Source of the DNA: Acaryochloridaceae cyanobacterium VAR_48_metabat_390
Lineage (GTDB): Bacteria > Cyanobacteriota > Cyanobacteriia > Thermosynechococcales > Thermosynechococcaceae
DNA length: 64,000 bases
Assembly: GCA_031422435.1 (NCBI GenBank)
Contig: JANPLU010000101.1
Location: 20,562 to 84,561 of the forward strand
Direction of reading: 5' to 3'
The notes below the pieces were generated by a model. The model did no database searches, was not told the origin of the DNA, and saw nothing but the letters and a program-made list of their open reading frames with translations. Positions 10,336-60,165 of the stretch are shown here, one piece after another; within the stretch, counting starts at the first letter, position 1; each line of letters starts with the position of its first letter. A program made the position numbers and the translations under genes.

Positions 10336-11682
10336 ATGACTCAAGCTATTTCTCGTCCAATCTCTCAATCGAATCAGGAAGCGGAACTTCGATCGCAGGT
10401 GTTTGATGCGGTGCTGAAGTTTTACGAGTTTAAGTTTGCGCCGAAAGCGTTTATTGCAGGTCAAACCTATATCCCTGTCTCGGGGAAGGTGTTTGATGAG
10501 GATGAGCTGGTGAATTTGGTTGATTCGTCGTTAGATTTTTGGCTGACGACGGGTCGCTACGCGCTGGAGTTTGAGGAAAAGTTTGCGGCTTGGATGGGGG
10601 TTAAGCATTGTTTACTTGTAAATTCGGGGTCTTCGGCGAATTTGGTGGCGCTGTCGGCGCTGACCTCGCCAAAGCTGGGAGATAAGCGGTTGGTGCCTGG
10701 GGATGAGGTGATTACGGTGGCGGCGGGATTTCCGACGACGGTAAATCCGATTTTTCAGAATCAGTTGGTGCCTGTTTTTGTAGATGTGAAGCTACCCAGC
10801 TATGACATTGATGTTGACCAGCTTGAGGCGGCGCTATCACCTCGTACCCGTGCGATTATGATTGCCCATACGCTGGGGAACCCTTTTGACTTAGAGGCGG
10901 TGATGGCATTTGCCCAAAAGCATGACCTTTGGGTGATTGAGGATAACTGCGATGCGGTGGGAAGTACGTATGGGGGGCAAAAGACGGGGACGTTTGGGCA
11001 TTTGGCGACGGTGAGTTTTTACCCAGCCCACCACATGACGATGGGGGAAGGGGGTGCGGTGTTAACGAGCGATACGCGGCTTAAAAAGATTGTGGAGTCT
11101 TTTAGGGATTGGGGGCGGGACTGCTGGTGTGCGCCAGGAGTAGACAATACGTGCAATAAGCGGTTTGACTGGCAGTTAGGCAGTTTGCCCTATGGCTATG
11201 ACCACAAGTATACGTATTCTCATGTGGGGTATAACCTCAAGATGACGGATATGCAGGCGGCGGTAGGGGTGGCGCAGTTTGAGAAGTTGCCAGAGTTTAT
11301 TGCGCGGCGGAGAGAAAATTTTCAGTTTTTGTATGAACAGCTCCAAGGGTTAGAGGATGTTTTAGCTTTGCCTGAGGCGGGGTTAAAGGCTGAGCCAAGC
11401 TGGTTTGGGTTCCCGATTTATGTGAGGCCGGAGGCTCGGTTTAGCCGGAATGATTTGGTACGGCACTTGGAGGAGAAGCGGATTGGGACGCGGCTGATGT
11501 TTGCAGGGAATTTGGTGCGTCAGCCGCTTTATGAGGGGTTGCTTTATCGAGTGGTGGGGGATTTGAAGAATACGGATCGGGTGATGGAGGGTGTGTTTTG
11601 GCTGGGGGTGTTTCCTGGGTTGACGGAGGAGATGTTGCGGTATGTGGTTAAGACGATTCGAGAATTTGTGGAGGCTGCATAA
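10336..11682 (+). CDS. rfbH: CDP-4-keto-6-deoxyglucose 3-dehydrase (E1)
   Basis: [14 protein letters not shown] (His in place of the PLP Lys), [19 protein letters not shown]. Confidence 0.93.
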
Positions 11683-11685
11683 GTT

Positions 11686-12570
11686 TTGCCTAAACCTGCG
11701 GATATTGGCGGTAAACGACTTATTAGTCTGGCACCGGAGACTTGGGTACGGTGGGTGACGCAATCTTCTGATGTGATGGTACTCGATATTCTTAATTCTG
11801 AGTTTCAATGGGTTTCTCGTCAGAATGATGTGCTGATTAAGGTTTATAGCCCAGAGGTGGGGGAGTTTCTGATTCTAAATGAGCTTCAGTTACGGTATTC
11901 ATTGAAGATGCCTCTTAGAATGAGAGCCTATACTGCACTGGCAGAAGAAAAGTATAAGCTACCGATTTTGCCTGTGCTGATTAATGTTTTGCCGCCTGGG
12001 TCTTTGGTGACGATTAATGACCGATATGAAAGTAATTATTTTGGGCTAAAGGCGCGCCAAGATTATAAGGTTATCAATTTATGGGAGGTTGATGTACAAA
12101 CGGTCTTTGAGCAGAATATAAGTGCGCTGCTGCCTTTGGTTCCGGTGCTTGACGGGGGTGATGACGTTGCAACGGTGGAGCGTGCGCTGCATTTGTTGCA
12201 GACGGATGATGAGTTATCTGAGATGGAACCTTTGTTAGGTTTTTTTGCTAGTTTTGTGTTAGACGCAGGTTTAATTAATCAAATTTTGAGGTGGGATATG
12301 GCTGTTTTGCGTGAGTCGCCTTGGCTAAATCAGATGCTTCTAGAAAGTGAGGCGAAAGGGGAGGCGAAAGGGGAGGCGAAAGGGAAACTAGAAGAGGGGC
12401 AGTCGTTGGTGCTGCGGCAGCTTGCACGACGGGTTGGGGTGGTTGGTGCTGAGTTGGAGGCGAGGGTGAGGGCGTTGGCGTTGGCGGATGTTGAGGCGCT
12501 GGGGGAGGCGTTGCTGGATTTTACTGGACTTGAGGATTTGATAGATTGGTTACGTGCACATGAAGGGTGA
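11686..12570 (+). CDS. Rpn/YhgA-like nuclease with DUF4351
   Basis: KPADIGGKRL, NDVL, NELQ, GEAK repeats, LGEALLDF. Confidence 0.85.
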   Translation: MPKPADIGGKRLISLAPETWVRWVTQSSDVMVLDILNSEFQWVSRQNDVLIKVYSPEVGEFLILNELQLRYSLKMPLRMRAYTALAEEKYKLPILPVLINVLPPGSLVTINDRYESNYFGLKARQDYKVINLWEVDVQTVFEQNISALLPLVPVLDGGDDVATVERALHLLQTDDELSEMEPLLGFFASFVLDAGLINQILRWDMAVLRESPWLNQMLLESEAKGEAKGEAKGKLEEGQSLVLRQLARRVGVVGAELEARVRALALADVEALGEALLDFTGLEDLIDWLRAHEG

Positions 12571-12603
12571 AAATGATTTAACTTTTAGGTTGTGTAAAAT
12601 GTT

Positions 12604-12750
12604 ATGAAACTGTTGACTCTTGAGTTATTAGAATTAAATAATAAAAAGACTGGTTTCTGCGATGAAGCTAGAACAGGCTATTTTTCTCGGTTCCTATGCT
12701 TATGGTGAGCCTACTGACGAGAGCGATATTGACTTATTGGTCATTTTTTG
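12604..12750 (+). pseudogene. Minimal nucleotidyltransferase (MNT antitoxin-like) fragment
   Basis: Manual translation ...FLGSYAYGEPTDESDIDLLVIF* (GS...DxD); frameshifted relative to ATG at 12604 and truncated. Confidence 0.65.
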
Positions 12751-13003
12751 AATAAAGAAGAAAAAACTGCTTGAAAAAATCTTGTCAGGTTCAAAGAAGA
12801 TTCAATTTGATGAGATGGTTTCATTGGTAGAGGCTTTTGGATTCAAATTGAATCGTGTTAGTGGTAGCCATCATATCTTCAAACATCCAAAGGTTGCTGA
12901 TATTGTCAACCTCCAAAACCGCAAGGGCAAGGCTTAGCCTTATCAAATACGTCAATTTTTGACTATAGTCGAAGAGAACAGTCTTACGTTAGAGGAAGGG
13001 TGA
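12748..13003 (+). pseudogene. hicA: HicA toxin with in-frame stop
   Basis: KLLEKILSGSKKIQFDEMV...VSGSHHIFKHP...KGKA*PYQIRQFL; TAG at 12935-12937. Confidence 0.8.
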
Positions 13004-13224
13004 TGAGAGACTATCACATTAATATTTTCTATAGCGAGGAAGATGAAGCATACATTGCTGATATCCCCGATTTAAAGTATTGTTCTGCTGTTGGTGATAC
13101 CCTACAGGAGGCACTTAAAGAAATAATAATAGCAAAACAGGCATGGCTAGAAACGAGCAAACTTGAAGGAAGAACCACTCCAGTCCCTAGGTATAGACCA
13201 GTGATTTATCAGACTGTTGCATGA
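13000..13224 (+). CDS. hicB: HicB family antitoxin
   Basis: YIADIPDLKYCSAVGDTLQEALKE; directly follows the hicA remnant. Confidence 0.85.
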   Translation: MMRDYHINIFYSEEDEAYIADIPDLKYCSAVGDTLQEALKEIIIAKQAWLETSKLEGRTTPVPRYRPVIYQTVA

Positions 13225-13336
13225 GTCTATTGCCTAATAAGACGTTGGAGCGAAATAGGGTATGACACTATGATTGGGCATGAGAGGAGATCGCTGTCTG
13301 CTCAGTGCCAAGCTTTTGGGGTGAAACAAATAGATT

Positions 13337-13588
13337 TTGAGGTGGGGTATGGCTGTTTTGCGTGAGTCGCCTTGGCTAAATCAGATGCTTCTAGAAAGTG
13401 AGGCGATGGGTGAAGTAAAAGGGGAGGCGAAAGGGAAACTAGAGGAGGAGAAGTCGCTGGTGCTTCGGCAGCTTGTGCGGCGGGTTGGGGTGGTTAGTGC
13501 TGAGTTGGAGGCAAGAGTGAAGGCGCTGGCGTTGGCGGATGTTGAGGCGTTGTTGGATCTTACTGGACGTGAGGATTTAATAGATTGA
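13337..13588 (+). pseudogene. Duplicated C-terminal (DUF4351) part of the Rpn gene at 11686
   Basis: Near-identical to about 12286-12550 (MAVLRESPWLNQMLLESEA...). Confidence 0.75.
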
Positions 13589-14092
13589 TTAAAGAATTGT
13601 GAAGGGTAAAATGTTTGATTTTTAGGTTGGCTCTTCTGGGTTTCGCTGGCATATTCAATAATACAAATTTTTTGTGGATGAACATTAAAAGTTATAGAAA
13701 TCAGACCCCATTTATGAGAAAAGCAAGCCCTAAAACCTCTGCCATTCATAAGTTGTCTTCTCACACTTCAAATCAAACTTCTATATACAGAACAATACAT
13801 TAGTCTTTCTTATCATCTTGAACTTAGAAGAGCTAAAGTTCTAAGTTTCCACTAGCACAGCTTGGCTAAAGTCTATCGATTATCTAGAATTTTTAGAGGT
13901 CAGATGTTATACTTATAGTCGCTAATCAATAGTGGAGATTTTTCCGCCAAGCTGTACTAACCTATTAAACTGCTTAATTACTTTTGTTATTCTGTACTAA
14001 GATAGGTTGATAAACAAAACTTATAATCTATCTAGCTCTGTGACTTCAAAGTTTCCTAACAGTTTTATTAGTGGGTTTCCTTAGTTTGTTAA

Positions 14093-47317: not shown

Positions 47318-47809
47318 CTATACCTTGAGTACCCAAGCCTCGCGATTCTCTGCATTCACAAAAGAGGCTGGCACTACGGGAATCTTCACGCCCAAAGAAA
47401 CAAACGCAGCTCGAATGGCGGTTGCATGAGCGGATTCTGTGCTGCCAATGCTGGCTCCAGCGCTAATTAAAGCTGGGGTTTTAAGTTTAGCGACCTCTTG
47501 GGTGTAGGCGATCGCCGCATCGATTTCCAGCGCCAGCGCCAATTTTGCAATGTTGACATCACTGTCTACATTGCCTTCACCATTTTTGATGTAGGAAGAC
47601 ACATCGTAGCTAGATTCCGCCTTTACAGGGCTTCCGCCTAGGCTGCTGATTGCAGAGGTTAAGAGGTCGCGGTGCTGTTTGTGGTCGGCTTGGTTGGCGA
47701 GGGAGATCGCCAAGACGGCTTTACCCACATCCGTATTAGTCAGCTTGCCAGCGGCAAAGCTGTAGGCCCAAATGGCCTGATGCTCATAGAACAATGCATT
47801 GTTGAGAAT
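47318..47809 (-). pseudogene. Ferritin-like domain protein, 3' part (interrupted gene)
   Basis: ILNNALFYEHQAIWAY...H..H...LEIDAAIAY...ESAHA; joins in frame to 59989-60165. Confidence 0.9.
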
Positions 47810-47831
47810 CCCCAGTTAGATAACTTTACAG

Positions 47832-47996
47832 CTAACCCCTATAGTTTGGGATTCGTTTGTTAGTGAACCATGCCCATGAAGCCGTCGCCATCGCCGCGAT
47901 GATGCCCGTCACCTTTGGATAAACGCCGCACGAACTAAGCGCCCCACTGACCGAAGCCACAAAACCGAAAACCGAGGTGAGTCTATCCGTGTTCAT
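47832..47996 (-). CDS. Small two-TM protein, holin-like (54 aa, absent from the ORF track)
   Basis: MNTDRLTSVFGFVASVSGALSSCGVYPKVTGIIAAMATASWAWFTNKRIPNYRG; ATGA overlap with the upstream enzyme gene. Confidence 0.6.
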   Translation of the reverse strand: MNTDRLTSVFGFVASVSGALSSCGVYPKVTGIIAAMATASWAWFTNKRIPNYRG

Positions 47997-48538
47997 TGGT
48001 CATCCTGCCAAACAGAAACGTAAACATCGCCTTGCTCTACCAACGGTAGAATCTTGTCCCTCAAGTGGACATTGTGCAGCCTGAGACAGCCGAGCGTATT
48101 GAAAAGCTTTTGTAGCAATGCCCAAGCAAGAGGCCATCCGCAAGCCGTACCACCGCCGTGCATCATTAGACCAGCGCGAAAATTGCCGTCCTCATTGCCC
48201 TCAAGGTCGATAAGGTCAAAGCTGTACCATCCGTACTGCATGAGGGTGCGTTCATAGTTCGGGGAGCTGCCCACATCCTCATAGTCGCGGTAGACCTGCC
48301 CAATCCGGTAAAGACCAGGGGGCGTGTCTCCGCTGTTGGCTCTCCAGTCCGCACCCAGACCTTCAGCAAGACAGGGGATTGTGAAGAGACACATTCCATA
48401 GAAATCGAATGCTTTTAAGGTCTTAGACTGAGCATTGACCACCAGATGATAGTCACCCTTCTTAAAACCGAACTCTTGCGGCCTACGCCGTGGTGCAGTC
48501 AACATCAATCCAACCTCTCGTAATAGGGAACATTCCAA
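47993..48538 (-). CDS. L,D-transpeptidase-fold (YkuD-like) protein, putative endolysin
   Basis: DTPPGLY, MMHGGG...TLGCLRLHN (His and Cys catalytic motif); likely start at MLTAP. Confidence 0.75.
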   Translation of the reverse strand: MECSLLREVGLMLTAPRRRPQEFGFKKGDYHLVVNAQSKTLKAFDFYGMCLFTIPCLAEGLGADWRANSGDTPPGLYRIGQVYRDYEDVGSSPNYERTLMQYGWYSFDLIDLEGNEDGNFRAGLMMHGGGTACGWPLAWALLQKLFNTLGCLRLHNVHLRDKILPLVEQGDVYVSVWQDDQ

Positions 48539-48789
48539 GACCTAACCTGAACCGACTGATTTTTAGGATTATTATTCTCAGTCGAGGAGCGCTGCACTTT
48601 TCCTGCAAGGTCATTGCCTAACAGCAGGTTGCTGCCACCGATAAAGGTCAACGCCATTAGGATTCGGTCTAGACGAACCGTTAAGCTGCTGAGATTGCCG
48701 TTAGCAACTTTTATTTCAGCCATCAACCCGTCGCTAGCCTGCTTTGCGTCAGCCGCGATGTCTTTTAGGGATTGCTCATTTCTGTTCAT
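48505..48789 (-). CDS. Small coiled-coil plus hydrophobic-segment protein
   Basis: Tightly packed in the operon; hydrophobic ILMALTFIGG stretch. Confidence 0.55.
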   Translation of the reverse strand: MNRNEQSLKDIAADAKQASDGLMAEIKVANGNLSSLTVRLDRILMALTFIGGSNLLLGNDLAGKVQRSSTENNNPKNQSVQVRSWNVPYYERLD

Positions 48790-48792
48790 TTT

Positions 48793-50091
48793 TTATCTCC
48801 CCACGGCCTGCAAATAGGTTGTAATTGCTCCATTTATCGAAGTGCAATCAGCGTCAGTTATGCCAACGTCACCTTTAAGAAGCATCCAAAACTTAATGCC
48901 GCCTGTATTAAATTCACCGTTGCCAGACAATAAACGAATTTTATTGTTAGCCCTAACTACTGAATCGGATTCACGGCTAAAAGTGCTGTTATAAAAGAAC
49001 CTGTCTTTAATCTGTGTGCCATTTGCCGCCTTAGAATAAAGCGACATCAAGGCATCTAAAGGGTTAGGAAGACCTATATAAATATAAAAATTATTTACGC
49101 TGTGACAGCCGCCGTCAAATAGGTCTGTATCATCTCTAGCCATAGCTTTAAAAGAACCTTTAAACGTCCACAAAGGCTTGACATCATTTTTGTAAACGCC
49201 AGCAAATTTTAGAAACATTCCTCTAAAATTTGTAGCTGTCCAATGAGTATCTAAAAATGCATCAGATGGATAGCCTATGCCGCCATCTTCGACACTGGCA
49301 CCGCTAGCAGCGCTAAACGCACGAGTGCCAGCCCAATTTTCAAGAATGCCAGTTTGAGGATTCATCAAATTGAGAGACTGACTAGCTTCTGTAGTTCCCA
49401 TAAAAGGGTAAAGTGCAAAAATTTTGCCAGAAGACGCAAACTCGCCTAGATTAGCGACCAACTGATTCAAAGCATTTGTTTGAGCCGTGGTGAGCGTGTA
49501 ACCTTGTGCAGTCTGAGCCGATCTGTAAGCCTCAACAATCTCGGTAGGGGTTGGCGGTGCTGGGGGCACACCTAAAAGAGCATCAACTTGTGCTTTGGTG
49601 TAGTAATTACTGAGATCTGCAACGCCAGCGGCACCCGTATCGCCCTTGTCGCCTTTATCTCCCTTAAGTCCTTGAATACCTTGGGCACCAGCAACACCAG
49701 GTTCACCCGTATCACCTTTGTCACCCTTATCACCTTTGTCACCTTTTGCACCAGGGGCACCTGGTAGCAAGGTTGCATCCAGCGCCTCTATCCTGATATC
49801 CCAAGAAGTTTGACTTGGTAGCAGTCTAAAGCCGAGTTTACGCACCTCTAAAGACTCTGGCTGCTCCAAAATGAAGCTTTGAGGGTCTGCCTGATAGCTG
49901 AAATCGTCTTGGGTATAGATAAACCCCGTGATGTCAGCTTGGGCGATCGCCGCACTACTCTCTTGCAACTGACCATCCTGATTAAGGGGCTGACTCAAAT
50001 GCACCACCCTAAAGTAGCTGCCCACCAAAACATCAGTGAACTGCCACTGGTCAGACAGGGTGAAGGTGGCGATAGGTGTGAATAAGGTCAT
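48793..50091 (-). CDS. Collagen-repeat spike/fibre-like protein
   Basis: Beta-rich N-terminal domain, G-X-Y repeats (GAKGDKGDKGDKGDTGEPG...), DLSNYYTKAQVD, distinct C-terminal domain. Confidence 0.7.
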   Translation of the reverse strand: MTLFTPIATFTLSDQWQFTDVLVGSYFRVVHLSQPLNQDGQLQESSAAIAQADITGFIYTQDDFSYQADPQSFILEQPESLEVRKLGFRLLPSQTSWDIRIEALDATLLPGAPGAKGDKGDKGDKGDTGEPGVAGAQGIQGLKGDKGDKGDTGAAGVADLSNYYTKAQVDALLGVPPAPPTPTEIVEAYRSAQTAQGYTLTTAQTNALNQLVANLGEFASSGKIFALYPFMGTTEASQSLNLMNPQTGILENWAGTRAFSAASGASVEDGGIGYPSDAFLDTHWTATNFRGMFLKFAGVYKNDVKPLWTFKGSFKAMARDDTDLFDGGCHSVNNFYIYIGLPNPLDALMSLYSKAANGTQIKDRFFYNSTFSRESDSVVRANNKIRLLSGNGEFNTGGIKFWMLLKGDVGITDADCTSINGAITTYLQAVGR

Positions 50092-50441
50092 GGCACACGG
50101 GCTTCTAGGGTAATTTGCCAGTCAGACGATGATGGAACGCGAGTAAAGCGCCTAAGCCTGATTTGTGGCTCCCATCGGGCTATGCCATTGGAGCGCAACT
50201 CATCAGGAACTGAGATTCTAAAAATCTTTTTCTCAGCGCTGGGATATAAAGACCGAAAGGTAAATGAGGCATTCTCATCTACAAAGAACTGACGCAAGTA
50301 CGCCGTTCCCCGTGGGGCTGAGGTAAAGGTATGAGTGACGCGAATCAGAACAGTTTCAAGGTCAATAAGAATGCCATAGGCACCGCCAACAGCCTGCCAT
50401 TCTAGGCCAGGTTGAACGGTACCGAGGCTAACCCATGACAT
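50088..50441 (-). CDS. Small beta-rich virion-like protein
   Basis: Resembles the N-terminal domain of the collagen protein; ATGA overlap. Confidence 0.55.
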   Translation of the reverse strand: MSWVSLGTVQPGLEWQAVGGAYGILIDLETVLIRVTHTFTSAPRGTAYLRQFFVDENASFTFRSLYPSAEKKIFRISVPDELRSNGIARWEPQIRLRRFTRVPSSSDWQITLEARVP

Positions 50442-50705
50442 CTAGACCATCCCTGCCAACGCAAATTCCATGTCTTCTAGGTAATCGTCGGGGCTGATAT
50501 TGTCCTCTAACATGCAGTCGAGCAGGTCATCAGGATGCATTTCGCCTCTAACGATGTCTGACAATAGCCGCTGACGACGGAAATACTGATTCCAAAGCAC
50601 CTCGGGATCATCATCTGGGGTCTGAATTTGCTCAGGCTCAAGACTGAGAGCAGACCAAGCTTTAGCGCCATCCATTATGAAAAAGTTCCAGGGACGCAAG
50701 AACAA
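50442..50705 (-). CDS. Small acidic hypothetical protein
   Basis: In operon; probable start MDGAK at about 50675. Confidence 0.5.
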   Translation of the reverse strand: MFLRPWNFFIMDGAKAWSALSLEPEQIQTPDDDPEVLWNQYFRRQRLLSDIVRGEMHPDDLLDCMLEDNISPDDYLEDMEFALAGMV

Positions 50706-51202
50706 AGATATTCAGGGTTTGCGGCCTTCACACGACCGCGAATTGTCCGATATGCGGCATCTTCATCAATCACAATGGGAGAGCCTCCAGCGCCAAAGGG
50801 GTAAGTGTAAGACTTACCACCGTAAGTCCTGTAGCTCTTGCCCGTGAGCTGTGATGTTTTGCGAGTGCCCGTGCCTCGACCTTTGACGATTACGACTCTC
50901 GGAGCAATCCAGCCGGGTAAAAGAATCTGATTAGATGCGGCGGGTGCTTGAAAGGCATAGGTTTGAAAATAATTTCCTAAGTCACCTGTGTTGCCACGTC
51001 CACGCTGAACCTGAAGCACTTTTTTAGCCGTGTTTAGGCCAGGCATAAAGGGACGAACCCAGATTTCTAACCCAGATGAAGCAATTTGCTGTTTAGGGTA
51101 AGAAACCTCATTAGATCCGTCCAAGTACGCCAAAAGCTTCGTTTTGGCGCTGTTGCTGTTGCCTCGTAAGACTCCGAGGTATCTAGCCCCTCGTCTTTTC
51201 AT
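50675..51202 (-). CDS. Basic hypothetical protein, paralogue B (candidate capsid protein)
   Basis: Arg-rich N-terminus; colinear with 51205-51753. Confidence 0.65.
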   Translation of the reverse strand: MKRRGARYLGVLRGNSNSAKTKLLAYLDGSNEVSYPKQQIASSGLEIWVRPFMPGLNTAKKVLQVQRGRGNTGDLGNYFQTYAFQAPAASNQILLPGWIAPRVVIVKGRGTGTRKTSQLTGKSYRTYGGKSYTYPFGAGGSPIVIDEDAAYRTIRGRVKAANPEYLCSCVPGTFS

Positions 51203-51204
51203 GG

Positions 51205-51753
51205 CTAGACGCTATAGCTACCAGGCACAAAGCTGCACTGATTTAAGGCGCCTGTCGTACCACTTTTAACATTGGCTCGGATCTTTAAGAACACCGCGTC
51301 TTCACTCTTTTCGTCAGCAGCCGTACCTTCTCCAAAGGGTACAGATATTGTTTTGCCGCCATATTTGCGGTATTTCAATCCGCTAATTTTGGAGGTTTCA
51401 GATGTGCCAGCTCCTGCAGTTCTGCCTGTGGTAATCGCGGCGCGAGGAGATAAAACACCAGACAAAACGAGCTTAGAATCTTCAGCAGGCGCTGTCTCGC
51501 TGACATAAGGCGCTGCAAGAGCCACAATAGTATCGTTACCGGATTGAACAAACTGCAAAAGCTTGACACCAGCACCAAGGGGAAGCACAAAGGGACGCAC
51601 CCATACTGAAGCACGGGCGGGTCGGTTGCCTGCACGTTCAGGATATTCGAGATCCACATCTCCATTGAGATAGGCGAGAAGCTTAGTCTTCGCGCTAGGA
51701 CCTCTTTTGCCTCGCAAAATGTTTAGATACCGAGTGCCAGATCGACGTGCCAT
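51205..51753 (-). CDS. Basic hypothetical protein, paralogue A (candidate capsid protein)
   Basis: Shared RYL..LRG...AKTKLLAYL.G, WVRPF, YGGK...PFG, CS.VPG. Confidence 0.65.
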   Translation of the reverse strand: MARRSGTRYLNILRGKRGPSAKTKLLAYLNGDVDLEYPERAGNRPARASVWVRPFVLPLGAGVKLLQFVQSGNDTIVALAAPYVSETAPAEDSKLVLSGVLSPRAAITTGRTAGAGTSETSKISGLKYRKYGGKTISVPFGEGTAADEKSEDAVFLKIRANVKSGTTGALNQCSFVPGSYSV

Positions 51754-51859
51754 TTGAAAATCCTATTTTTTATCAGAAAGCTTATGGAAATCACCTTAAC
51801 TCGCTGAAGTTGGCGCAAATATCCATCGAACCCTATAGGGTTCGGGCGCTGCAAATAAG

Positions 51860-52675
51860 CTAAAAACTGACAAGTCCAGATTTTTCCGAAAATCGTCTTG
51901 TGACTAAAAAAATAGGGTTAGGAAGACCATGAATAGCAACGCTGGCATTATGAAACCGGACGTAAACTGTAGGACGTTCAACTGGCTTGTTTCTGCTTTT
52001 TCCCAAAATTATTTGAGTTCCAGGGGTAGAAGGAAACGTTTTTTTGGGTTCATGAGTCGTCACATAGTCATCGTTGTAAGGGCGCTGGGCACAGTCACAT
52101 ACTTTTCTGATAACCTCTATTCCTTCGGCTTCACTAAACGCGTAAATTTGCAGATTTAAGCCTGACTCAAGGTTTTTATAGGTCACAAGAATTTTGCCTT
52201 TGCGCCATCTGTAACCATTTGCAGCGCCTAGCTCTGATTTAATGCGGTTTGCGATGGCGTTCAGTTCTGCTTCGGTCAAGGTTGTGGAAGATTCGTTAAC
52301 CAGTCTGAAGCTGATTTCAGCGCGAGATGGAGAACGACCACTAGGCACACTGTCAGGATCTTGCTTGAAATAGAGATTGACCTGCGGTTTGTATTTGACC
52401 TGAGAATCATAATCAGCGACCGGAATTCCGTAGATGGGCGCTTGGAGGTCTGCGGCTTTTCTCGCATGGAAGAAGAACAGATGCAGCCTGAGCAGGGTCA
52501 TGTCTACGGTGTCGTCATCATCCAGCAGACAGGCGCGTTTGAGTGCCCCTCTAGGGATGGTTAGGGCATCGTCATCGGTAATATCACTGAACTCTTCACG
52601 AACGAGCTTGTTATGGTAATTTCTCAGCACGTCTTGAAGGTGTTCCCATTTTGAAAACCCTTGAGGTAAGGCCAT
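51860..52675 (-). CDS. Hypothetical protein (candidate structural)
   Basis: 271-aa ORF in the co-oriented operon. Confidence 0.65.
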   Translation of the reverse strand: MALPQGFSKWEHLQDVLRNYHNKLVREEFSDITDDDALTIPRGALKRACLLDDDDTVDMTLLRLHLFFFHARKAADLQAPIYGIPVADYDSQVKYKPQVNLYFKQDPDSVPSGRSPSRAEISFRLVNESSTTLTEAELNAIANRIKSELGAANGYRWRKGKILVTYKNLESGLNLQIYAFSEAEGIEVIRKVCDCAQRPYNDDYVTTHEPKKTFPSTPGTQIILGKSRNKPVERPTVYVRFHNASVAIHGLPNPIFLVTRRFSEKSGLVSF

Positions 52676-52678
52676 TTT

Positions 52679-55330
52679 CTACACTCCTGGTTTATTAAGG
52701 TCAGTGGCTTCGATGTTGGGAGAGGCGCTTACGGTTTTAGATGCCGTTGCCGCTTCTTTCTGCGGTTGGTTCTCGGTCTGAGATTTCTCGGTGCCCAAGC
52801 CTAGGGACTTGCCTAGTTCGTCTTTTTGAGAGGCGATCTGAGTGACAGTCTCCTGGGCGCTCAGAATTTCGCTGGCGACGCTATCGATTTGTGAAACGGT
52901 GTTCTCAACGGTTTCGAGTGCCTGGGTAAATTTGTTGTCAAAGTTAGGGCTAGGGTTCATCCAGGCGTAGGATGACTCACTGACGACGCCGGAGCGCTTC
53001 AGGGCGTTACCGATTCGAGCATTCCAGCCGCCGATGGTTTCTAGGGCGCTGACGACGGAAAAGCGTAGAGACTGGATGCTGTTCCCGAGGTTCGCGGCTG
53101 CCTGATAAATACGATTTGCTTTTTTGAAGTTTGTTGAAAGCGTGGTGTAGTTCTCTGTGCCGATGGTTTCTTTAACGGTGTTCTCAACTGATTTACCAAT
53201 GAGTTCGCCTAAATCATAGGCATTGCCGCCGTCGTCTCTAATGCCAAAAACTGACAGCCCGTTTGAGAGCATTGATAGCAACGTTTGCCCAAGGTCACGG
53301 CTGAGCATGAGCGCGTTATGCAGAGTTGAAATAAGGGTAAGGACGCTCACGAGCTGCCCGAGTCGTGCCCATTTTGCAAATTTGCCTAGTTTTTCTGCAA
53401 CCCCGCTTACGGCTTGACCAACTTTACCGAGCCGGTCGAAAGTGCGCTGTCCTTGGCCTGATAGACCGCCTTCAACTTGTTGACCTAGCTTGTTATTGAT
53501 TGTGGTCAGCAGCCCCAAGTCTAGGTATTGGGCAAAGCGCTCAAAATAGTTGGCAATCGCTTCAGAGTTATCAGCCGCTTTTTTAGAGTTGTCTCTGGCA
53601 TCTTGTGCGGCGCTTTCGATAGATGCGTTACATGCATTTCCTTGACATTTGCCTCCTGACTTTGGGGCTTGAGTGGGCGTAAAAGATGGCGGGGTGAAAC
53701 TATCCAAGGGGTTTTTCTCCTTATCGGGGTCAGTGCCGAAGGGGTTCGGGGTTGGGTTAGGAATAATGGGCGCGTAGGGCGGCGGGGGCGGTGGAGATGC
53801 GGGGGATGTTGGCGAAAAGGGGATGCTTGGCGGCGGCGCAAAGCCGCTATCGTCGCCAGTGTCTGTTCCAGGGCTAGTGCCAGGTTCACTTGCTCCAGTT
53901 CCAGGGCTGGGCACAGGACCCGGCACGGATGGAGCAGGAAGCGTTGTAGGGATAGCTGGCGATGGCAATGGAACGGGCACCGCTGGGACGGGCTGCGGTG
54001 TGGGATATGGCACTACTGGAATGGGTTCCGGTACTGCTGGCACTGGAGGAGGATCGGGGACTGTTGGAGACGGCTGCGGTGAAGGAGAAGGAACGACAGG
54101 AACGGGGGGCGGTACTGCTGGCGCAGGGCTAGGTTCTGGGATTGTGGGGTTTGGACTGGGCTGCGGTACTGGCTGCGGATAGGGGTCAATAAATGGCGGC
54201 GATGTTGGGCTAGGACGAAACGGGAAGTCCTCCTCAGTGCCGTCCGGATCTGGATCTACGCCAGGGGGCAGCTGCGGTGATGGTGATTCTTCAGGTTCTG
54301 GTTCTTCGGGCGATTCCTTGGGCTTAGGTTCTGCGGGGGATGGTGGGCCTGGTTCGTCTTCTGGTGGCTCTGGGTACTCAGGGTCTGGCAGTCCTGGGTA
54401 GCGTAGCGGCAGGTCAGGCGGTATCGTGTCAGGAATCTTAATCGGCGGCGGGGCAACCGTTGGAGGTGCTGCTGAATAGGGCGGCGTAAAGATGGGTTTT
54501 TCGTTGGGTGCGCGATCTCCGTCACACCGTGCAACGCATCTAAAGCCGTATTGAGATATGGCTGTCCATTCAATCCCACCAAAACGGGATAAGGCAGTAT
54601 TAAGACCCGCTGTCTTCCATGCAACGCTGTTGTAATATTCGATGTACTCAAGAGTGCTGGGCGGATCCATGTTTTGACGAGTTGCCAAGATAGGCCCTTC
54701 CCCGTCTGCTTCCATTTCTATGTCATAGTCTGGACCTACCCGAGGATCGTTTAGAGGGTTTGACCGCCTGAATAATACAGTCCATTTGTAGGCAGCAAAA
54801 AACGTACTCGCATCTTTAACAGGCCAAGTTTCACGGGGCTGTGCAGGTACATTTTTGCCTGTTGGGTCTTGTAGTCCAGATGGGGTATGAGGTGATGGGG
54901 CGATACCAGGGAGTCCGCCAGGGCTTCCTTTTTTTGGTCTGAAGATCGGGAATATAAAGGGAACGCCCAGTGACGGAGGGGGCGGGGGAAGGGGAATCGG
55001 AATCGCTATCGGCTGAGCGTCGGGGTAAAACGGGATTGCCCCAGGGCGGCGCACTCCACGCTTAGGGATAGGTACGGCAGCTGGGGGAGGCGCGGTTCTG
55101 CCACCAGGTACTGCACGACCAGGGACTGAACCACGTCCAGGCGCTGAACCACGTCCAGGCGCACCGGAAACGGGGCGACCACGACCAGGCGGCGCCAGCG
55201 CTCCAGGCGCTGCTGGATAAATGCCCTGATGTTGAAGTAATTCTTTGCCGAGCAGAAGGCCACCAGCAATAAAGGGTAGCGCCTCAGCGACGGCACCACC
55301 CGCTAACGGGAGCGCTAGGGGTAACGGCAT
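52679..55330 (-). CDS. Large proline-rich protein with helical/hydrophobic C-terminus
   Basis: Hydrophobic N-terminus, long Pro-rich tracts, C-terminal amphipathic helices. Confidence 0.7.
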   Translation of the reverse strand: MPLPLALPLAGGAVAEALPFIAGGLLLGKELLQHQGIYPAAPGALAPPGRGRPVSGAPGRGSAPGRGSVPGRAVPGGRTAPPPAAVPIPKRGVRRPGAIPFYPDAQPIAIPIPLPPPPPSLGVPFIFPIFRPKKGSPGGLPGIAPSPHTPSGLQDPTGKNVPAQPRETWPVKDASTFFAAYKWTVLFRRSNPLNDPRVGPDYDIEMEADGEGPILATRQNMDPPSTLEYIEYYNSVAWKTAGLNTALSRFGGIEWTAISQYGFRCVARCDGDRAPNEKPIFTPPYSAAPPTVAPPPIKIPDTIPPDLPLRYPGLPDPEYPEPPEDEPGPPSPAEPKPKESPEEPEPEESPSPQLPPGVDPDPDGTEEDFPFRPSPTSPPFIDPYPQPVPQPSPNPTIPEPSPAPAVPPPVPVVPSPSPQPSPTVPDPPPVPAVPEPIPVVPYPTPQPVPAVPVPLPSPAIPTTLPAPSVPGPVPSPGTGASEPGTSPGTDTGDDSGFAPPPSIPFSPTSPASPPPPPPYAPIIPNPTPNPFGTDPDKEKNPLDSFTPPSFTPTQAPKSGGKCQGNACNASIESAAQDARDNSKKAADNSEAIANYFERFAQYLDLGLLTTINNKLGQQVEGGLSGQGQRTFDRLGKVGQAVSGVAEKLGKFAKWARLGQLVSVLTLISTLHNALMLSRDLGQTLLSMLSNGLSVFGIRDDGGNAYDLGELIGKSVENTVKETIGTENYTTLSTNFKKANRIYQAAANLGNSIQSLRFSVVSALETIGGWNARIGNALKRSGVVSESSYAWMNPSPNFDNKFTQALETVENTVSQIDSVASEILSAQETVTQIASQKDELGKSLGLGTEKSQTENQPQKEAATASKTVSASPNIEATDLNKPGV

Positions 55331-55336
55331 TAACGT

Positions 55337-55642
55337 CTAGCTCTTGAAGCTGGCAGGAATCGGAGTGGCGCTCAGTTCTTGGACGTAGTTCCAGATTTGG
55401 TTGCCGCCGCCTTGCCAGTCTTTTGAGAGGGGGACTGAGACGCGCGAGATGTTGCGCCAGGTCGCAGGGTCTGACGCGGTGATGTAAAACGGGGCGCTGG
55501 ATGCGGTGCGGGTTAGGCTTCCAGTTGTTTCGACTGCGGTCTGGTCAGGGTTTAGGTTACTGAGCAGCGTTGATGCCCAAGCTTCAAGCTTTTCGACGGT
55601 GTTGATTTCTGAAGGGATGTCTGAAGGGGTGAAGGCGGTCAT
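55337..55642 (-). CDS. Hypothetical protein, first gene of the leftward operon
   Basis: 101-aa ORF, 6 bp from the next gene. Confidence 0.65.
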   Translation of the reverse strand: MTAFTPSDIPSEINTVEKLEAWASTLLSNLNPDQTAVETTGSLTRTASSAPFYITASDPATWRNISRVSVPLSKDWQGGGNQIWNYVQELSATPIPASFKS

Positions 55643-55840
55643 GCTGTTTTTTTGGTAGCTACACTGCCTATTTATTCACCTATAAAAAATCATTTCTACT
55701 CTGTCTTTTAAGTAAAAGATAGAGTTATTGTGTTAGCCTTATCGCGTTACACATCAACCATTACAGCGTTTTACACTCACTACTTGAAAAGCCTTTTCTC
55801 TCTGTTTTAGTGTTCCTTAAATTAAAAGACCTAGTAATCA

Positions 55841-56412
55841 ATGAAACTAAATAGGCACGGAAAGGCTACTGTGTTCTCTGAGTCTGACTATTTGAAGTTT
55901 CGAGACAAGGTTACGTCTAAGACCCATCGCCTTATTTTTGACTTCGGCTGGTGGACGGGCGAACGAATGGGCGCGATTCTGCTGCTAACGGTGGATAACG
56001 TCTACAGCAACCCTGCCAAGAGTGAGCCGCGCGATTATGTGACCTATCCAGCTTCTACTCGCAAAGACCGAAGGACGCGCCAAGTGAGAATCCATCCCGA
56101 GCTGGCGACAAATCTATGGGCGTATCGCCCACCGACAGAAGGCTTTCTGTTTCAGCGTTTGAGAAACCCGGGGCAGGCGATTTCGATGAGTGATATTGAC
56201 GCGCTGATGCGCTATTACCTACAAAAGCTGGGTTGGCAGGAGCGGGGCTACGCTACACACTCGTTCCGTCGCTCGTTTATCACGCGGCTCCATGAGAATG
56301 GGACAGACCCGATTGTGATGCAGCAGCTTACGGGACACTCGAACCTACAGAATCTGATCGCTATGTGGAGGTTGACCCGAATCGGGTTGACCGTGCGCTG
56401 CTGTCTCTTTAG
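55841..56412 (+). pseudogene. Tyrosine recombinase (catalytic domain only), frameshifted before the catalytic Tyr
   Basis: TGER, K, HSFRR, TGH present; RYVEVDPNRVDRALLSL* lies in the -1 frame from 56359. Confidence 0.8.
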
Positions 56413-56950
56413 GGGCTTTGCCTAGATAGCGCGATCGCTTCTTCCCGTTCTCATCACGCCACCGTTGCACTAGATAAGGGCCGTAGGTTTTTCCTTTAAT
56501 TGTTTTGTAGTTTTTCTCTACCCAATACTCTCCAAAGACTGAATCTGTAACGCTTTGAAGTGCTTTATCGCTAATCTTGTCCTGGTCTTGCCCACCAAAT
56601 AAGTCATCGTCTGTTTTTTGGTGGGCAGATTGAGGGCGATCGCCTCCCTCGATGCCACTTTTAGAAAAATCAGGTAACGAGTCATCAAGGGTTTCAGGCG
56701 AATTGTTTATGGCCACAACATCATTTGAGGCAGAATTGCTCTCATCCATGAGCGGGGCGGGGTGATAAAACAGCGGGTTATAGTGCAGCCCATCTCTGCA
56801 ATAAAACCAGCCAGCACCACAGAAGCATTTAATCTCTGCGTAACCTATTGGGATAAGACCGCCGCCGTCGTCGTCCTGGTCTTGCCCATCAAAAGCTTCG
56901 TGATAGAGAACTTTTCCGAGTAGGGTGAGCTGGTCATAGGTTAGGGTCAT
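56345..56950 (-). CDS. Hypothetical protein with basic C-terminal nucleic-acid-binding-like motif
   Basis: KTIKGKTYGPYLVQRWRDENGKKRSRYLGK. Confidence 0.55.
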   Translation of the reverse strand: MTLTYDQLTLLGKVLYHEAFDGQDQDDDGGGLIPIGYAEIKCFCGAGWFYCRDGLHYNPLFYHPAPLMDESNSASNDVVAINNSPETLDDSLPDFSKSGIEGGDRPQSAHQKTDDDLFGGQDQDKISDKALQSVTDSVFGEYWVEKNYKTIKGKTYGPYLVQRWRDENGKKRSRYLGKAPKETAAHGQPDSGQPPHSDQIL

Positions 56951-57251
56951 CGGCGGCGATCGCTTCTATTGCGACGGGGTTTATGCTGAAGTTTTCTCTG
57001 ACTAGGCGGCGGCACCTGAAAACCGAGCGGGGTCTTACGGAACTCTTTGATAACGTCCATGAATGCCAGTGCAACAATAGACCAGATGTACAGCAGCATG
57101 GCAAGACAAAACCCAGCCACTACAAGATTTAGGGATAGATAGATGAGGTTTTGGAGAAGTTAAATCATCGTTCTGAGGTAACGCGTCTTTCTCAGGGTGA
57201 ACACACAACAGACCAAAACTAACCCCATGCAATCAAGGAGATCGCATGGGG

Positions 57252-57620
57252 TTAGTTTTCTGAATCAGTAATCTCATTGAGCCGCTCAATGGTTGCTTCA
57301 AGAAGTTGAATGCGTTGCTTTTGCTGCTCAACTTCATTCTGCAACCTAGCCAACCGCAAACGCTCCTCTTCTAGCAGTTGGCTAATGACTCCCCCATTAT
57401 TTGGGCTTGCTGTGGAGTGGCATTCCCGATCATGCCCCTCGCGTATCTCTCTATCAATTCTGATCTGCTCAGTCCCTCTTGAACTGCTCTTTCGTCCAGA
57501 CTCTGAATGCTCAGCTCGGTTAGGGAGATGTTTAATCGTTTCTTTGGTTCTTCGTATGAACCGTGCTTTACTCCGGTCTTTCTTTGAGCCATTTCTTTTT
57601 TCCATAGTTGGTTCATACAC
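57252..57620 (-). CDS. Coiled-coil protein overlapping the RHH gene in another frame
   Basis: ISQLLEEERLRLARLQNEVEQQKQRIQLLEATIERL heptads; true start uncertain. Confidence 0.4.
   Translation of the reverse strand: MYEPTMEKRNGSKKDRSKARFIRRTKETIKHLPNRAEHSESGRKSSSRGTEQIRIDREIREGHDRECHSTASPNNGGVISQLLEEERLRLARLQNEVEQQKQRIQLLEATIERLNEITDSEN
57371..57592 (-). CDS. Ribbon-helix-helix (CopG-like) repressor
   Basis: KKRLNISLTELSIQSLDERAVQEGLSRSELIERYAR. Confidence 0.8.
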   Translation of the reverse strand: MAQRKTGVKHGSYEEPKKRLNISLTELSIQSLDERAVQEGLSRSELIERYARGMIGNATPQQAQIMGESLANC

Positions 57621-57711
57621 AAGATATTAACTGAACTCTTACACAACTACCATTACATTATTGCGCATTCTTACACAAGATGTTACCTTTGGGTGGCATC
57701 TTGTGTAAGAA
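57616..57711. promoter_or_regulatory. Divergent promoter region with repeated TACACAA operator-like sites
   Basis: TACACAA at 57616, 57640, 57672 and inverted at 57701; 15-bp inverted repeat 57668-57711; TTGCGC-N17-TACCTT with extended TG at 57661-57689. Confidence 0.6.
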
Positions 57712-57723
57712 ATAATTGTTCTG

Positions 57724-57876
57724 ATGAAACAACTCACCGTTCGTTACCAGCCTGACTCTGTTGAAGCGTTCTATGAAGGAAAAATTCTTTATCGCTGGTC
57801 AAACCCTGTGTTTGCAAGACAGCAGATAGCCGAGATCCAGCTCAAGGGCTGGACAATCATCCGAGAGGGCGTATGA
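57724..57876 (+). CDS. Small hypothetical protein (50 aa, absent from the ORF track)
   Basis: MKQLTVRYQPDSVEAFYEGKILYRW...; ATGA overlap with the next ORF. Confidence 0.55.
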   Translation: MKQLTVRYQPDSVEAFYEGKILYRWSNPVFARQQIAEIQLKGWTIIREGV

Positions 57877-58154
57877 CCGACAACTTCTATAGAGATATGT
57901 GCTTGCTGCTCTTTACAGCCCTAGACATGGCTTCAGAAGAAATTGCTACCGACCGCGAAGACCAGGACAGGTTCAGAAGTCTTTACATCATTAAGGCTTC
58001 TACGTTTCTCAAAAGTGATGAGAGCCTTTCCTACCGCGCTCAATGCCTTGAACATCTCAGACAACAACACAGACAGGAGCTATTGAAGAGTGTTTATAAG
58101 ACTTCCAGGCAATCGAATCATCAATCTGGCGAGAGTGAATCAAATCACCTATAG
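57873..58154 (+). CDS. Hypothetical protein
   Basis: 93-aa ORF coupled to the previous one. Confidence 0.55.
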   Translation: MTDNFYRDMCLLLFTALDMASEEIATDREDQDRFRSLYIIKASTFLKSDESLSYRAQCLEHLRQQHRQELLKSVYKTSRQSNHQSGESESNHL

Positions 58155-58359
58155 CTTTGACCTAAGTGAAGTCACCATCTTCTGGGCAACGGGTGATTGT
58201 GAACTTCATTTAGTTAAAGGAGATGCGATCGCATCTCCTTTACGCCATAGACAGGCTGAATGACCATCGTAAGCAGCAGCTCATTGACGTGCAGCAGTTC
58301 GTAGACCCCCATGCAAACGCTGAAACGGTTTTGTATGGAAGCGAATCACTTTTCTAAAA

Positions 58360-58417
58360 ACCCGCCTGATGAGTCTTAAATAGACGAAACTTTCCCAACG
58401 TTGGGAAAGTCGCGGGT
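58360..58417 (+). ncRNA. Type I hammerhead ribozyme
   Basis: acccgc-CUGAUGA-gucu(uaaau)agac-GAAA-cuuuccca(acgu)ugggaaag-UC-gcgggu; full core and three stems; predicted cleavage after C58411. Confidence 0.9.
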
Positions 58418-58615
58418 ACCCTTCCAAAAGGTACCAGCCCTAAATGCGATCGCTAATCGGGCTTAGTTGAGAATTGGCCTTGAATTATCGGGCTTTCAAA
58501 ATTCACGGCCTTGAATGCGATCGCGTTTAGTAGAGCTTTGTCGGTTCTCACAGTGAATAGGCCACGCATTAGGCGGGCTTCGGGAGATTCTATGAACCGT
58601 ATGGCAAGGCTTAAC
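58412..58615 (+). ncRNA. Bridge RNA (5' hairpin, target-binding loop, donor-binding loop)
   Basis: Guides gttgagaatt and tcaaaattc match the empty target; acagtgaat and gggagattc match the element ends; each pair is enclosed by a stem. Confidence 0.85.
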
Positions 58616-58670
58616 CGCCGAGCAAGCTTAAGTTTGGAACCCAACTCCTAGGACAAAAGCGAAAGCAAAT

Positions 58671-59873
58671 ATGCGAATTTTGGGACTCGACGTGTGTCGT
58701 GGCTCCGTTGTGGGCTGCTTATTTACAGAACTTCCAGATAACTGCTTAGGCTGGTTTAGAGCCAATAAACAATCCATTGAGAGCTACGAATCGACTCGTG
58801 AAGACGTTGAAAGACTGCTGGCACTGAAGCCAGACATGGTGATTCTAGAACCCACGGGCGTACACTACGCACGGCTTTGGGCAGACCATCTCATTAAAGC
58901 CGGAGTGATTGTGCGTTGGATTGGGCACGCACAACTAAAGTACGAACGCCTTACCCTGCGAATGCCCAATAAGAACGACGCGGCTGATGCCTGTGTGATG
59001 GCCTACTACGGGCACAAACATCTTTTAGAGCCTGAATACTTCCTCAAGTTCGATATTCATGGGGTCGCTGCATCCATGCGATCGCTCGGTTTGCAGCTCA
59101 AACACCTCAACAGTCAAAGCACCATCCTGACCAATCGAATCAGACAGAACCTAGCCCATGAATGGCCTGAAGTTCATCGGTATCAAACCACGGGGCATAA
59201 TGACACAACCCCGCCACTATGGCGCTACATCGCAGGGGGTAAGGTCGCAAAGATAACCAATACCAAATATTCAAAATCTCTGGGCAACACCATCGGCAGT
59301 GGTCTTTCTGAGTTCACCATTGACCACGCGATCGCACTCACTGAAAATGAAGCCCGTCAGATCAAGATTGAAAAGATGCTCTTTCATCTGGTCTACAGCC
59401 CTGACTTCGAGATGTATAACGAAGCCTTTGACCTGTTTGGTTTTGGCTTGCGGGTTCGGGCAATGGTGCTGAGTCATATTTTCCCAATCGAGAGCTTTCT
59501 AGGGGCTGATGATAAGCCTATCGTGCAATACGTTGACTCCACTGGAGTGAGGAAAAAGAGTAAACGCGATCGCAGTTTAGCCGCCTTTAAGCTGGCCTGC
59601 GGGATGGGCATGATTGAGGATAGTTCAGGGGATAAAGAAGTCTTTAAAGCTGGAGGTTCTGCTCTAGTGCGGGTGGCGCTGTGGCAATGGTGCTTTACGC
59701 ATCTAGAAGCCTATGGCGGTAAGAGAGCAACCGATAGCGAAGTCTGTAAAAAGCTGGTGACGTTCCTGCATACGAGAAAGTCTGCTAGTGGTTCACGGAT
59801 TCGGGTTGTACGATCTGCAACGGTGGCGCGGGCAACTGAGATGTTATTTAAGGAACTGGTCAAGAGGATTTAA
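58671..59873 (+). CDS. IS110-family (DEDD/Piv-like) bridge recombinase
   Basis: ILGLDV, LEPTG, KNDAADA (DEDD tetrad); C-terminal CGMG...SSG catalytic Ser motif; GG..VR..LWQW. Confidence 0.9.
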   Translation: MRILGLDVCRGSVVGCLFTELPDNCLGWFRANKQSIESYESTREDVERLLALKPDMVILEPTGVHYARLWADHLIKAGVIVRWIGHAQLKYERLTLRMPNKNDAADACVMAYYGHKHLLEPEYFLKFDIHGVAASMRSLGLQLKHLNSQSTILTNRIRQNLAHEWPEVHRYQTTGHNDTTPPLWRYIAGGKVAKITNTKYSKSLGNTIGSGLSEFTIDHAIALTENEARQIKIEKMLFHLVYSPDFEMYNEAFDLFGFGLRVRAMVLSHIFPIESFLGADDKPIVQYVDSTGVRKKSKRDRSLAAFKLACGMGMIEDSSGDKEVFKAGGSALVRVALWQWCFTHLEAYGGKRATDSEVCKKLVTFLHTRKSASGSRIRVVRSATVARATEMLFKELVKRI

Positions 59874-59892
59874 TCCGGTTTTATCATCTGCC

Positions 59893-59933
59893 CACCAAAA
59901 AGCCACCGTCTCTCAATCGGTGGCTTTTTGGTG
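59893..59933 (+). terminator. Strong bidirectional terminator-like hairpin at the element right end
   Basis: caccaaaaagccaccg...cggtggctttttggtg, 16-bp perfect inverted repeat. Confidence 0.75.
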
Positions 59934-59988
59934 AGTTTGGAAGATAGGAAAGGCTATGCAGGCCTGGTAACGATCTACTACAGTGAAT

Positions 59989-60165
59989 TTTGACATCGTT
60001 CTGTTTAGAAGGGGTCGCAGCATCCGCCCGACCTGCCAGCAGCGGTAAGCCCAGCGCACTCACAATGCCGCCTGCGACCCCAGCCATACTCCCCGTCACC
60101 AAAACATCGCGGCGGGAAACACCCTTGCGTCGAGGACGGTCTAGGTCGTAGTTATATTCGTTCAT
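59989..60165 (-). pseudogene. Ferritin-like domain protein, 5' part with Tat-like signal (interrupted gene)
   Basis: MNEY...SRRDVL...AGRADAA-TPSKQNDVK; continues as ILNNALFYE at 47809. Confidence 0.88.

Follow-up and report, generated by a model that had tools for sequence, protein, structure and literature searches.

Why should a self-cleaving RNA stand at the head of a guide RNA? The question is raised by a stretch of 64,000 nt of cyanobacterial DNA (the window) in which a hammerhead ribozyme directly precedes an RNA resembling those that guide IS110-family recombinases. What bacterial hammerheads do is treated as unsettled in the parts of two accounts covered here (PMC6765202, PMC3088659); at this locus their function could be tested with one dead-core control, since the ribozyme sits on an RNA whose recombination can be counted. 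A preliminary description of the window had proposed that self-cleavage probably frees this RNA from an internal polycistronic transcript.

Re-reading of the sequence bears out every coordinate, core element and stem length in that description. CUGAUGA (58366-58372), GAAA (58386-58389) and GUC (58409-58411) are arranged around a 6-bp stem I (58360-65/58412-17), a 4-bp stem II and a stem III of 8 bp besides the conserved A-U pair, that is, the core CUGANGA...GAAA...UH with three stems and an open stem I. The 58-mer is predicted to fold as a hammerhead (z -4.87), an equal stability being reached in none of 200 shuffles, and a strict type I descriptor applied to both strands of the 3.70-Mb genome returned one match, the hammerhead of the window. 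In the proposed check against Rfam both hammerhead models align, Hammerhead_1 (RF00163) over its full length at 32.5 bits (E 1.8e-05) and RAGATH-1-hammerhead (RF03152) at 38.6 bits, but these scores lie under the curated cut-offs of 34 and 56.3, and at gathering level Rfam has no match in the window. The hairpin followed by the target loop, described as lying 3' of the cut point, is found there (Table 1); it draws on the 3' strand of stem I and is therefore incompatible with the active ribozyme fold.

Table 1. Features of the element and its surroundings, in coordinates of the window.
Feature	Position	Strand	Basis
Type I hammerhead ribozyme, predicted cut 3' of C58411	58360..58417	+	Sequence, descriptor, fold, conservation
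5' hairpin of the cut product (GGUACC/GGUACC)	58412..58438	+	Folding; family fold test
Target-binding stem-loop of the bridge RNA	58440..58530 (approximate ends)	+	Fold with guides kept unpaired
Left target guide GTTGAGAAT	58466..58474	+	Identical to left flank and core (47801-47809)
Right target guide TCAAAATTC	58496..58504	+	Reverse complement of core and right flank (59985-59993)
Donor-binding stem-loop of the bridge RNA	58533..58612 (approximate ends)	+	Fold
Left donor guide ACAGTGAAT	58550..58558	+	Identical to element right end and core (59980-59988)
Right donor guide CGGGAGATTC	58581..58590	+	8/10 complementary to core and left end (47806-47815)
CTCC, complement of the right donor guide	58645..58648	+	Covaries with guide family-wide; cis anti-guide
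Whole virus-like element, 12,179 bp	47810..59988		Guides, empty site, cargo annotation
Left core GAAT, element begins behind it	47806..47809	+	Guides, empty site
Right core GAAT	59985..59988	+	Guides, empty site
Interrupted host gene, 5' part (TAT-signal ferritin-like protein)	59989..60165	-	Annotation, guides
Interrupted host gene, 3' part	47318..47805	-	Annotation, guides
Chain of overlapping small ORFs (50, 93, 57, 44 aa)	57724..58357	+	ORF calls; presumed upstream part of the transcript
20-bp inverted repeat between divergent gene blocks	57668..57711		Candidate operator/promoter region, inferred
IS110-family recombinase, 400 aa	58671..59873	+	NF051857, 398.5 bits (cut-off 180); D7, E60, D103, D106, S319
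Terminator-like hairpin 3' of the recombinase gene	59893..59933	+	Fold/sequence

The RNA 3' of the ribozyme is a bridge RNA. Between the ribozyme and the recombinase gene, four RNA segments match DNA located 1.4 to 10.7 kb away: the two target guides match both flanks of the element, and the two donor guides match both of its ends. Target and donor loops thus match sites around a shared core in the window, and a permutation test across the family agrees. In that test left ends were called through a conserved motif, GAATCCCCA, independently of the guides, which could be parsed in 29 of the 40 long loci with sufficient upstream DNA, the remaining 11 being left out. All 15 elements with a unique left end have a flank that matches the five guide bases 5' of GAA (mean 5.27/6; permutation mean 2.02, maximum 3.6). 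At the right end the five bases match in 22, 21, 22, 24 and 20 of 25 elements, a set that retains three probably mis-called ends (mean 4.56; permutation mean 1.68, maximum 2.56). A reading of the repeated GGGCTT/GGCC motifs as a TIGR-like array was rejected, the motifs being the stems of the two loops.

Between close relatives, L096/L097 and L059/L061 for example, the target guides are almost randomised. Over 31 pairs whose proteins are at least 85% identical, from which six L065 pairs with mis-parsed guides were excluded, a mean of 3.7 of 10 target guide bases is shared, and the guides fit the current site wherever that site is readable. A complement of the right donor guide, about 20 nt 5' of the start codon, covaries with the guide: CACC accompanies GGGTGA guides in 49 of 57 cases (CTCC in 0), and CTCC accompanies GGGAGA guides in 6 of 9. 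This anti-guide has as a partner the guide base that is mismatched to the donor DNA, and may therefore act as a cis lock or translational switch. At a few other loci (L111/L121, L117/L127, L129, L387, L409, L410) a ribozyme is joined to an RNA of different layout, apparently with no GAA core.

The ends of the element are confirmed by the host. Excision rejoins one 222-aa ferritin-like frame, and an empty site is present in two of the four DNA runs examined, which come from different studies, the joint in both running from 47805 to 59985 with four ambiguous letters. A crossover at CA 47815 was rejected, as guides and reading frame give GAAT. The left end at 47806-47809 lies 10.55 kb from the ribozyme, in keeping with the roughly 10.5 kb of cargo initially estimated to separate the two. 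In runs X1 and X2, from which the window may derive, the element (47806-59988) assembles as a separate contig of 12,183 nt, with a depth of 14.6 against flanks of 7.3 and 10.3 in X1 and of 8.9 against 6.7 and 7.1 in X2; the higher depth is consistent with a circle or a second insertion.

The element is here called virus-like; no capsid gene was identified in the window copy. The cargo comprises YkuD-like (weak), collagen-repeat, proline-rich, Xer-like and small repressor-like genes together with many unknowns; a search of the window element for capsid and packaging genes gave none, the matches being limited to collagen-repeat/tail-fibre, integrase-like and repressor-like genes and a weak YkuD. 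The Xer-like gene was rejected as the integrase, since the element ends match the RNA guides. Compared with the window, the relatives in X3 and X6 have one nucleotide more at 56358 and one fewer at 58234; these single-base indels suggest that the window's Xer-like gene (55841-56425) and the last two small ORFs (58090-58357) may be frameshifted.

Elements of the family span 10.1-15.7 kb in the 13 cases with both ends, and closed genomes, among them G145, G201 and G410, carry an element as well. The RNA is internal in these elements, not placed at the left end of a compact insertion sequence with a junction promoter. The 2.5 kb upstream contain a left-end-like motif at 3 of 76 loci, with a single full GAATCCCCA among the three, whose flank disagrees with the guide of that locus; there is accordingly no sign of a compact form over this distance in the 76 loci. 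Right ends joined to left ends, in 7 of 89 homolog loci, may represent circles or tandem copies. The nearest relative by protein stands at 94%. A 271-aa cargo gene has a homolog in 15 of the 24 loci whose upstream sequence extends to 14 kb or more; for this conserved protein and another of 182 aa, Atlas matches were below 0.9 and no match appeared in PDB or NCBIfam. The cargo block is oriented opposite to the recombinase module in L127, L152 and L158. A distant relative, L392 (G444), is a 15.4-kb IMG/VR record with terminal repeats and the module at 11500-13990; it combines terminase, portal and major head genes with the hammerhead, the RNA and the IS110 gene, and two segments of its RNA match one and the same site, near 11509 (score 17, next 14), which represents an intact donor junction.

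The recombinase has an N-terminal DEDD domain and a C-terminal conserved serine within the 300-460 aa size range, and D7, E60, D103, D106 and S319 are invariant in 51 of 51 aligned homologs, from 94 found. PF01548 falls under its cut-off for the window protein, and PF02371 matches 17 of the 51. The protein had no match in 50,697 phage records, and a search of IMG/VR with the recombinase alignment gave none, while the DNA pattern found one record there. In the portions of the IS621 and ISCro4 (IS622) work available (PMC11208160; PDB 8wt6, 9t56), those systems share the DEDD domain and serine, an RNA 5' of the gene in the order 5' stem-loop, target loop, donor loop, a core within all four guides, and donor guides that are constant where target guides vary. 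The present systems differ in their length of 10-16 kb, in their virus-like cargo, in an RNA some 10 kb from the junction, in a GAA core where IS621 and ISCro4 have CT, in the hammerhead before the RNA, and in a distant protein (best PDB match E 5.6e-05) that belongs to NCBIfam NF051857. For IS621, the parts of one study covered here report that read-through transcripts suffice and that 5'- or 3'-extended bridge RNA recombines in vitro, activity falling about two-fold if both extensions are present (PMC13626964).

On sequence comparison the ribozyme is a trait of this recombinase family. Loci were pooled from several searches, one of which contributed its best 80 of 204, and a relaxed hammerhead descriptor that includes stems I-III was run on 93 loci, duplicates removed, for which 450 nt or more of upstream sequence was available. 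A sense ribozyme with its cut 134-339 nt 5' of the recombinase start was found in 74 of the 93, an antisense one in none of the 93 and a downstream one in 1 of 79. In a second genome draw 11 of 25 loci carried it and 14 missed the descriptor, the lower rate being attributable to heavier sampling of lineages with a hairpin in its place. The loci being related, such counts are not independent samples. The survey of homologs for co-occurring ribozymes, suggested in the preliminary description, thus shows that homologs retain the ribozyme, and the general lack of it that was named there as grounds for abandoning the idea was not encountered.

Changes on both sides are seen in 17 of 19 pairs, and stems II and III covary, pairing being part of the descriptor. 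The pseudoknot, which was not a selection criterion, joins loop II to at least 4 bases immediately downstream of stem I and is present in 56 of 59 members (permutation mean 26, maximum 37). In 54 of 59, folding pairs at least 3 of the first 4 post-cut bases into the hairpin (shuffle mean 33, maximum 42). ViennaRNA stem I probabilities are low in the family (medians 0.02 and 0.001 at two lengths) and uninformative, since pseudoknots lie outside the model. Across 15 delimited elements totalling 205 kb, the strict hammerhead occurs in 9, solely before the bridge RNA. Canonical IS110 genes (PF02371) served as a control: at 30 of their loci the descriptor gave 6 matches, one with a canonical core, positioned inside a coding region. 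Conversely, a pattern search of 401 genomes gave 69 matches, of which 42 lie at most 460 nt 5' of this recombinase; the reversed control pattern gave 20 matches. At least 5 changes of ribozyme presence appear on a quick tree, whose long branches are the reason that no order of gain and loss is claimed.

The ribozyme is not universal, as several lineages have a long hairpin instead. Inspected by eye, the 19 descriptor misses among the 93 loci comprise 4 structural variants with an intact core, 3 core mutants, 8 loci with a long hairpin, 1 with neither, and 3 in which no bridge RNA is visible. At 18 of 20 ribozyme-less loci examined, the place of the ribozyme is taken by a long bulged hairpin (z -3.0 or lower), and in folding models its 3' arm can re-pair as the 5' hairpin of the RNA, just as after ribozyme cleavage. 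This re-pairing at the same place suggests that the 5' end of the bridge RNA matters. The replacement is about 20-22 bp, bulged (L010, L011, L034, L044, L047, L086, L371-L374, L380, L382, L384, L398, L399, L402, L403, L407, L411), and may be an RNase III site. No other ribozyme class was detected by Rfam in 7 ribozyme-less loci.

The ribozyme is also found away from recombinases. The same hammerhead subtype with its hairpin occurs in other phages at a median of 39.5 nt 5' of an ATG, and 60 of 94 such phage hammerheads before ordinary genes have the pseudoknot. Ribozyme and hairpin are therefore a general 5'-end module of phages rather than one specific to bridge RNAs. This subtype, with a CCGC/GCGG stem I, pseudoknot and 5' hairpin, is common in phage records of IMG/VR (L218-L345), often several times per genome; hammerheads of this type also occur in L351 (G130) and L349 (G375), where no recombinase or cargo homolog was found nearby. 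One element has a second ribozyme copy before a small ORF.

How, then, would the RNA be made? A junction promoter of the IS621 style is ruled out here by the approximately 10 kb between bridge RNA and circle junction. No sigma-70 site was found 5' of the RNA in a promoter scan that performed at chance level and is uninformative. The small ORFs upstream have no family match; only 2 nt lie between their final stop codon and stem I, and 19 of 50 loci in the family have a sense ORF of 40 aa or more that terminates no further than 15 nt from the ribozyme, where about 1.8 would be expected. Given elements of 10-16 kb and a ribozyme that often adjoins an upstream stop codon, release from an operon transcript is likely: the bridge RNA would be transcribed as the tail of an internal operon, and the ribozyme probably frees it from the longer message. 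The hammerhead, to judge by its conserved core, stems and pseudoknot, would fold as the polymerase passes and cut 3' of C58411; in the model, about 25 nt further on the freed 3' strand of stem I would re-pair into the hairpin, the predicted probability of stem I in the window copy being above 0.95 up to 58432 and about 0.15 once 58450 has been transcribed. Since the hairpin excludes stem I, it can release the product and confine cleavage to a short window. The upstream piece would be shed, leaving an RNA whose 5' end is fixed and capped by the hairpin; it would contain both guide loops and run on into the recombinase mRNA. There being no second ribozyme 3', the product would be a bridge RNA still attached to its message, serving as guide and as recombinase leader. 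In host DNA the target loop would pair over 5 nt + GAA + 5 nt, and the partner of the donor loop would be the joined ends; the guide-site matches that underlie this pairing are demonstrated in sequence.

As is general for hammerheads, the product would have a 5'-OH end and be protected from decay. The ribozyme may have been retained for the benefit that a defined, ribosome-free and stable 5' end would bring to a guide RNA. That the element is virus-like, with an IS110 bridge recombinase as its integrase and an operon-tail bridge RNA freed by the hammerhead cut, is the reading we consider probable, with appreciable room for doubt. We are more tentative, at somewhat short of an even chance, about a wider proposal: that ribozyme, bridge RNA and recombinase form a portable module for unrelated cyanobacterial viruses, in which the ribozyme is a co-transcriptional switch that guide maturation requires, a nuclease-cut hairpin having replaced it in lineages from which it was lost. 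Necessity of the ribozyme is put in doubt by the same module on phage mRNAs, by the hairpin lineages, by the working 5'-extended IS621 RNA, and by the window copy without a pseudoknot.

The rival that fares best, unlikely in our view though far from negligible, makes the cut a general cut-and-cap reaction for the recombinase mRNA, serving its stability or translation, with the bridge RNA a passenger that functions uncut. It draws on the phage hammerheads close to ordinary start codons, on a guide that no 3' ribozyme separates from its mRNA, on the function of extended IS621 RNA, on the second ribozyme copy before a small ORF, and on the proposal, in the part of one survey covered here, that bacterial and prophage hammerheads, many of them near integrase genes, process long transcripts (PMC3088659). 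The ribozyme is nevertheless otherwise missing from 205 kb of element cargo, the bridge RNA places 134-339 nt between it and the start codon, and the post-cut hairpin stands where the 5' stem-loop of a bridge RNA belongs.

Release of the guide by the family's ribozyme is compatible with a second explanation, itself rather unlikely, that the window copy is decayed or slow in a decaying provirus. The stem I-II contact of the window copy is 2 bp, with no pseudoknot, where at least 4 bp is the family norm; pseudoknots are described as required for fast cleavage in other bacterial hammerheads, in the same partly covered survey (PMC3088659). The modelled advantage of the hairpin over stem I in longer transcripts and the indels that suggest frameshifts in the Xer-like gene and last small ORF point the same way. 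Decay is harder to square with a perfect core, a stem I longer than usual (6 bp, plus a 6-bp extension in the nascent fold), a loop II that aligns with the RF00163 consensus loop, an intact recombinase and an element that assembles as its own deeper contig.

It is very improbable that the cut serves the upstream genes, ending or destabilising the small-ORF mRNA, with any effect on the guide incidental: stop codons do adjoin the ribozyme in 19 of 50 loci, but its position before the bridge RNA is constant while upstream ORF lengths vary widely, and the conserved hairpin would protect the downstream product and contains the pseudoknot partner. A chance match or non-catalytic structure, in spite of scores under both Rfam cut-offs, can be dismissed as already refuted by conservation, given a lone genome-wide descriptor match, dozens of homologs with invariant core and covarying stems, and the excess near recombinases over the reversed control.

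For release of the guide by its own ribozyme there are engineered parallels. RiboJ-type insulators use a self-cleaving RNA to define the end of a message. The nearest counterpart, in the part of the source covered, is an HDV ribozyme placed 3' of a bridge RNA as a tool only, where a self-cleaving RNA likewise sets the guide end (PMC11208160); here the arrangement is natural, 5' and conserved across many cyanobacterial families. Bacterial and prophage hammerheads, as partly covered (PMC3088659; RF00163, RF03152), share the type I core, the stem I-II pseudoknot and phage-like DNA. They differ in that the product here is a guide RNA with readable targets, which gives the cut a measurable output. 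That IS110 genes act as phage integrases is already known (PMC11437467, PMC7058167): in Neisseria Nf/MDA filamentous prophages and Thermus phiOH16-like phages such a gene lies at the provirus end and is presumed to direct integration and excision, the covered parts of these accounts containing no bridge RNA or ribozyme; hosts and cargo also differ.

The separate parts are therefore of known kind, and their combination was not found in print within the literature searched. A full-text search, covering few subscription papers, found no natural ribozyme tied to a bridge RNA, in line with the statement in the preliminary description that none was known. The word 'ribozyme' is absent from the main text of PMC13604230, PMC13626964 and 10.1101/2025.05.14.653916; PMC4524478, so far as covered, is unrelated to the pairing. 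In its available parts 10.64898/2026.10.21.760802 handles hammerheads and bridge RNAs separately, and its hammerhead cluster, for which the main text parts give no context, may overlap this family.

The finding suggests how a bridge recombinase moves an element of 10-16 kb without a junction promoter. It also makes available dozens of natural recombinase-guide pairs that have a GAA core and define their own 5' end; the clade they come from may largely escape domain filters requiring PF02371 (17/51 match). If the portable module reading is true, the family would offer a guide RNA that a ribozyme matures in nature, together with a bacterial hammerhead whose substrate and output are both defined.
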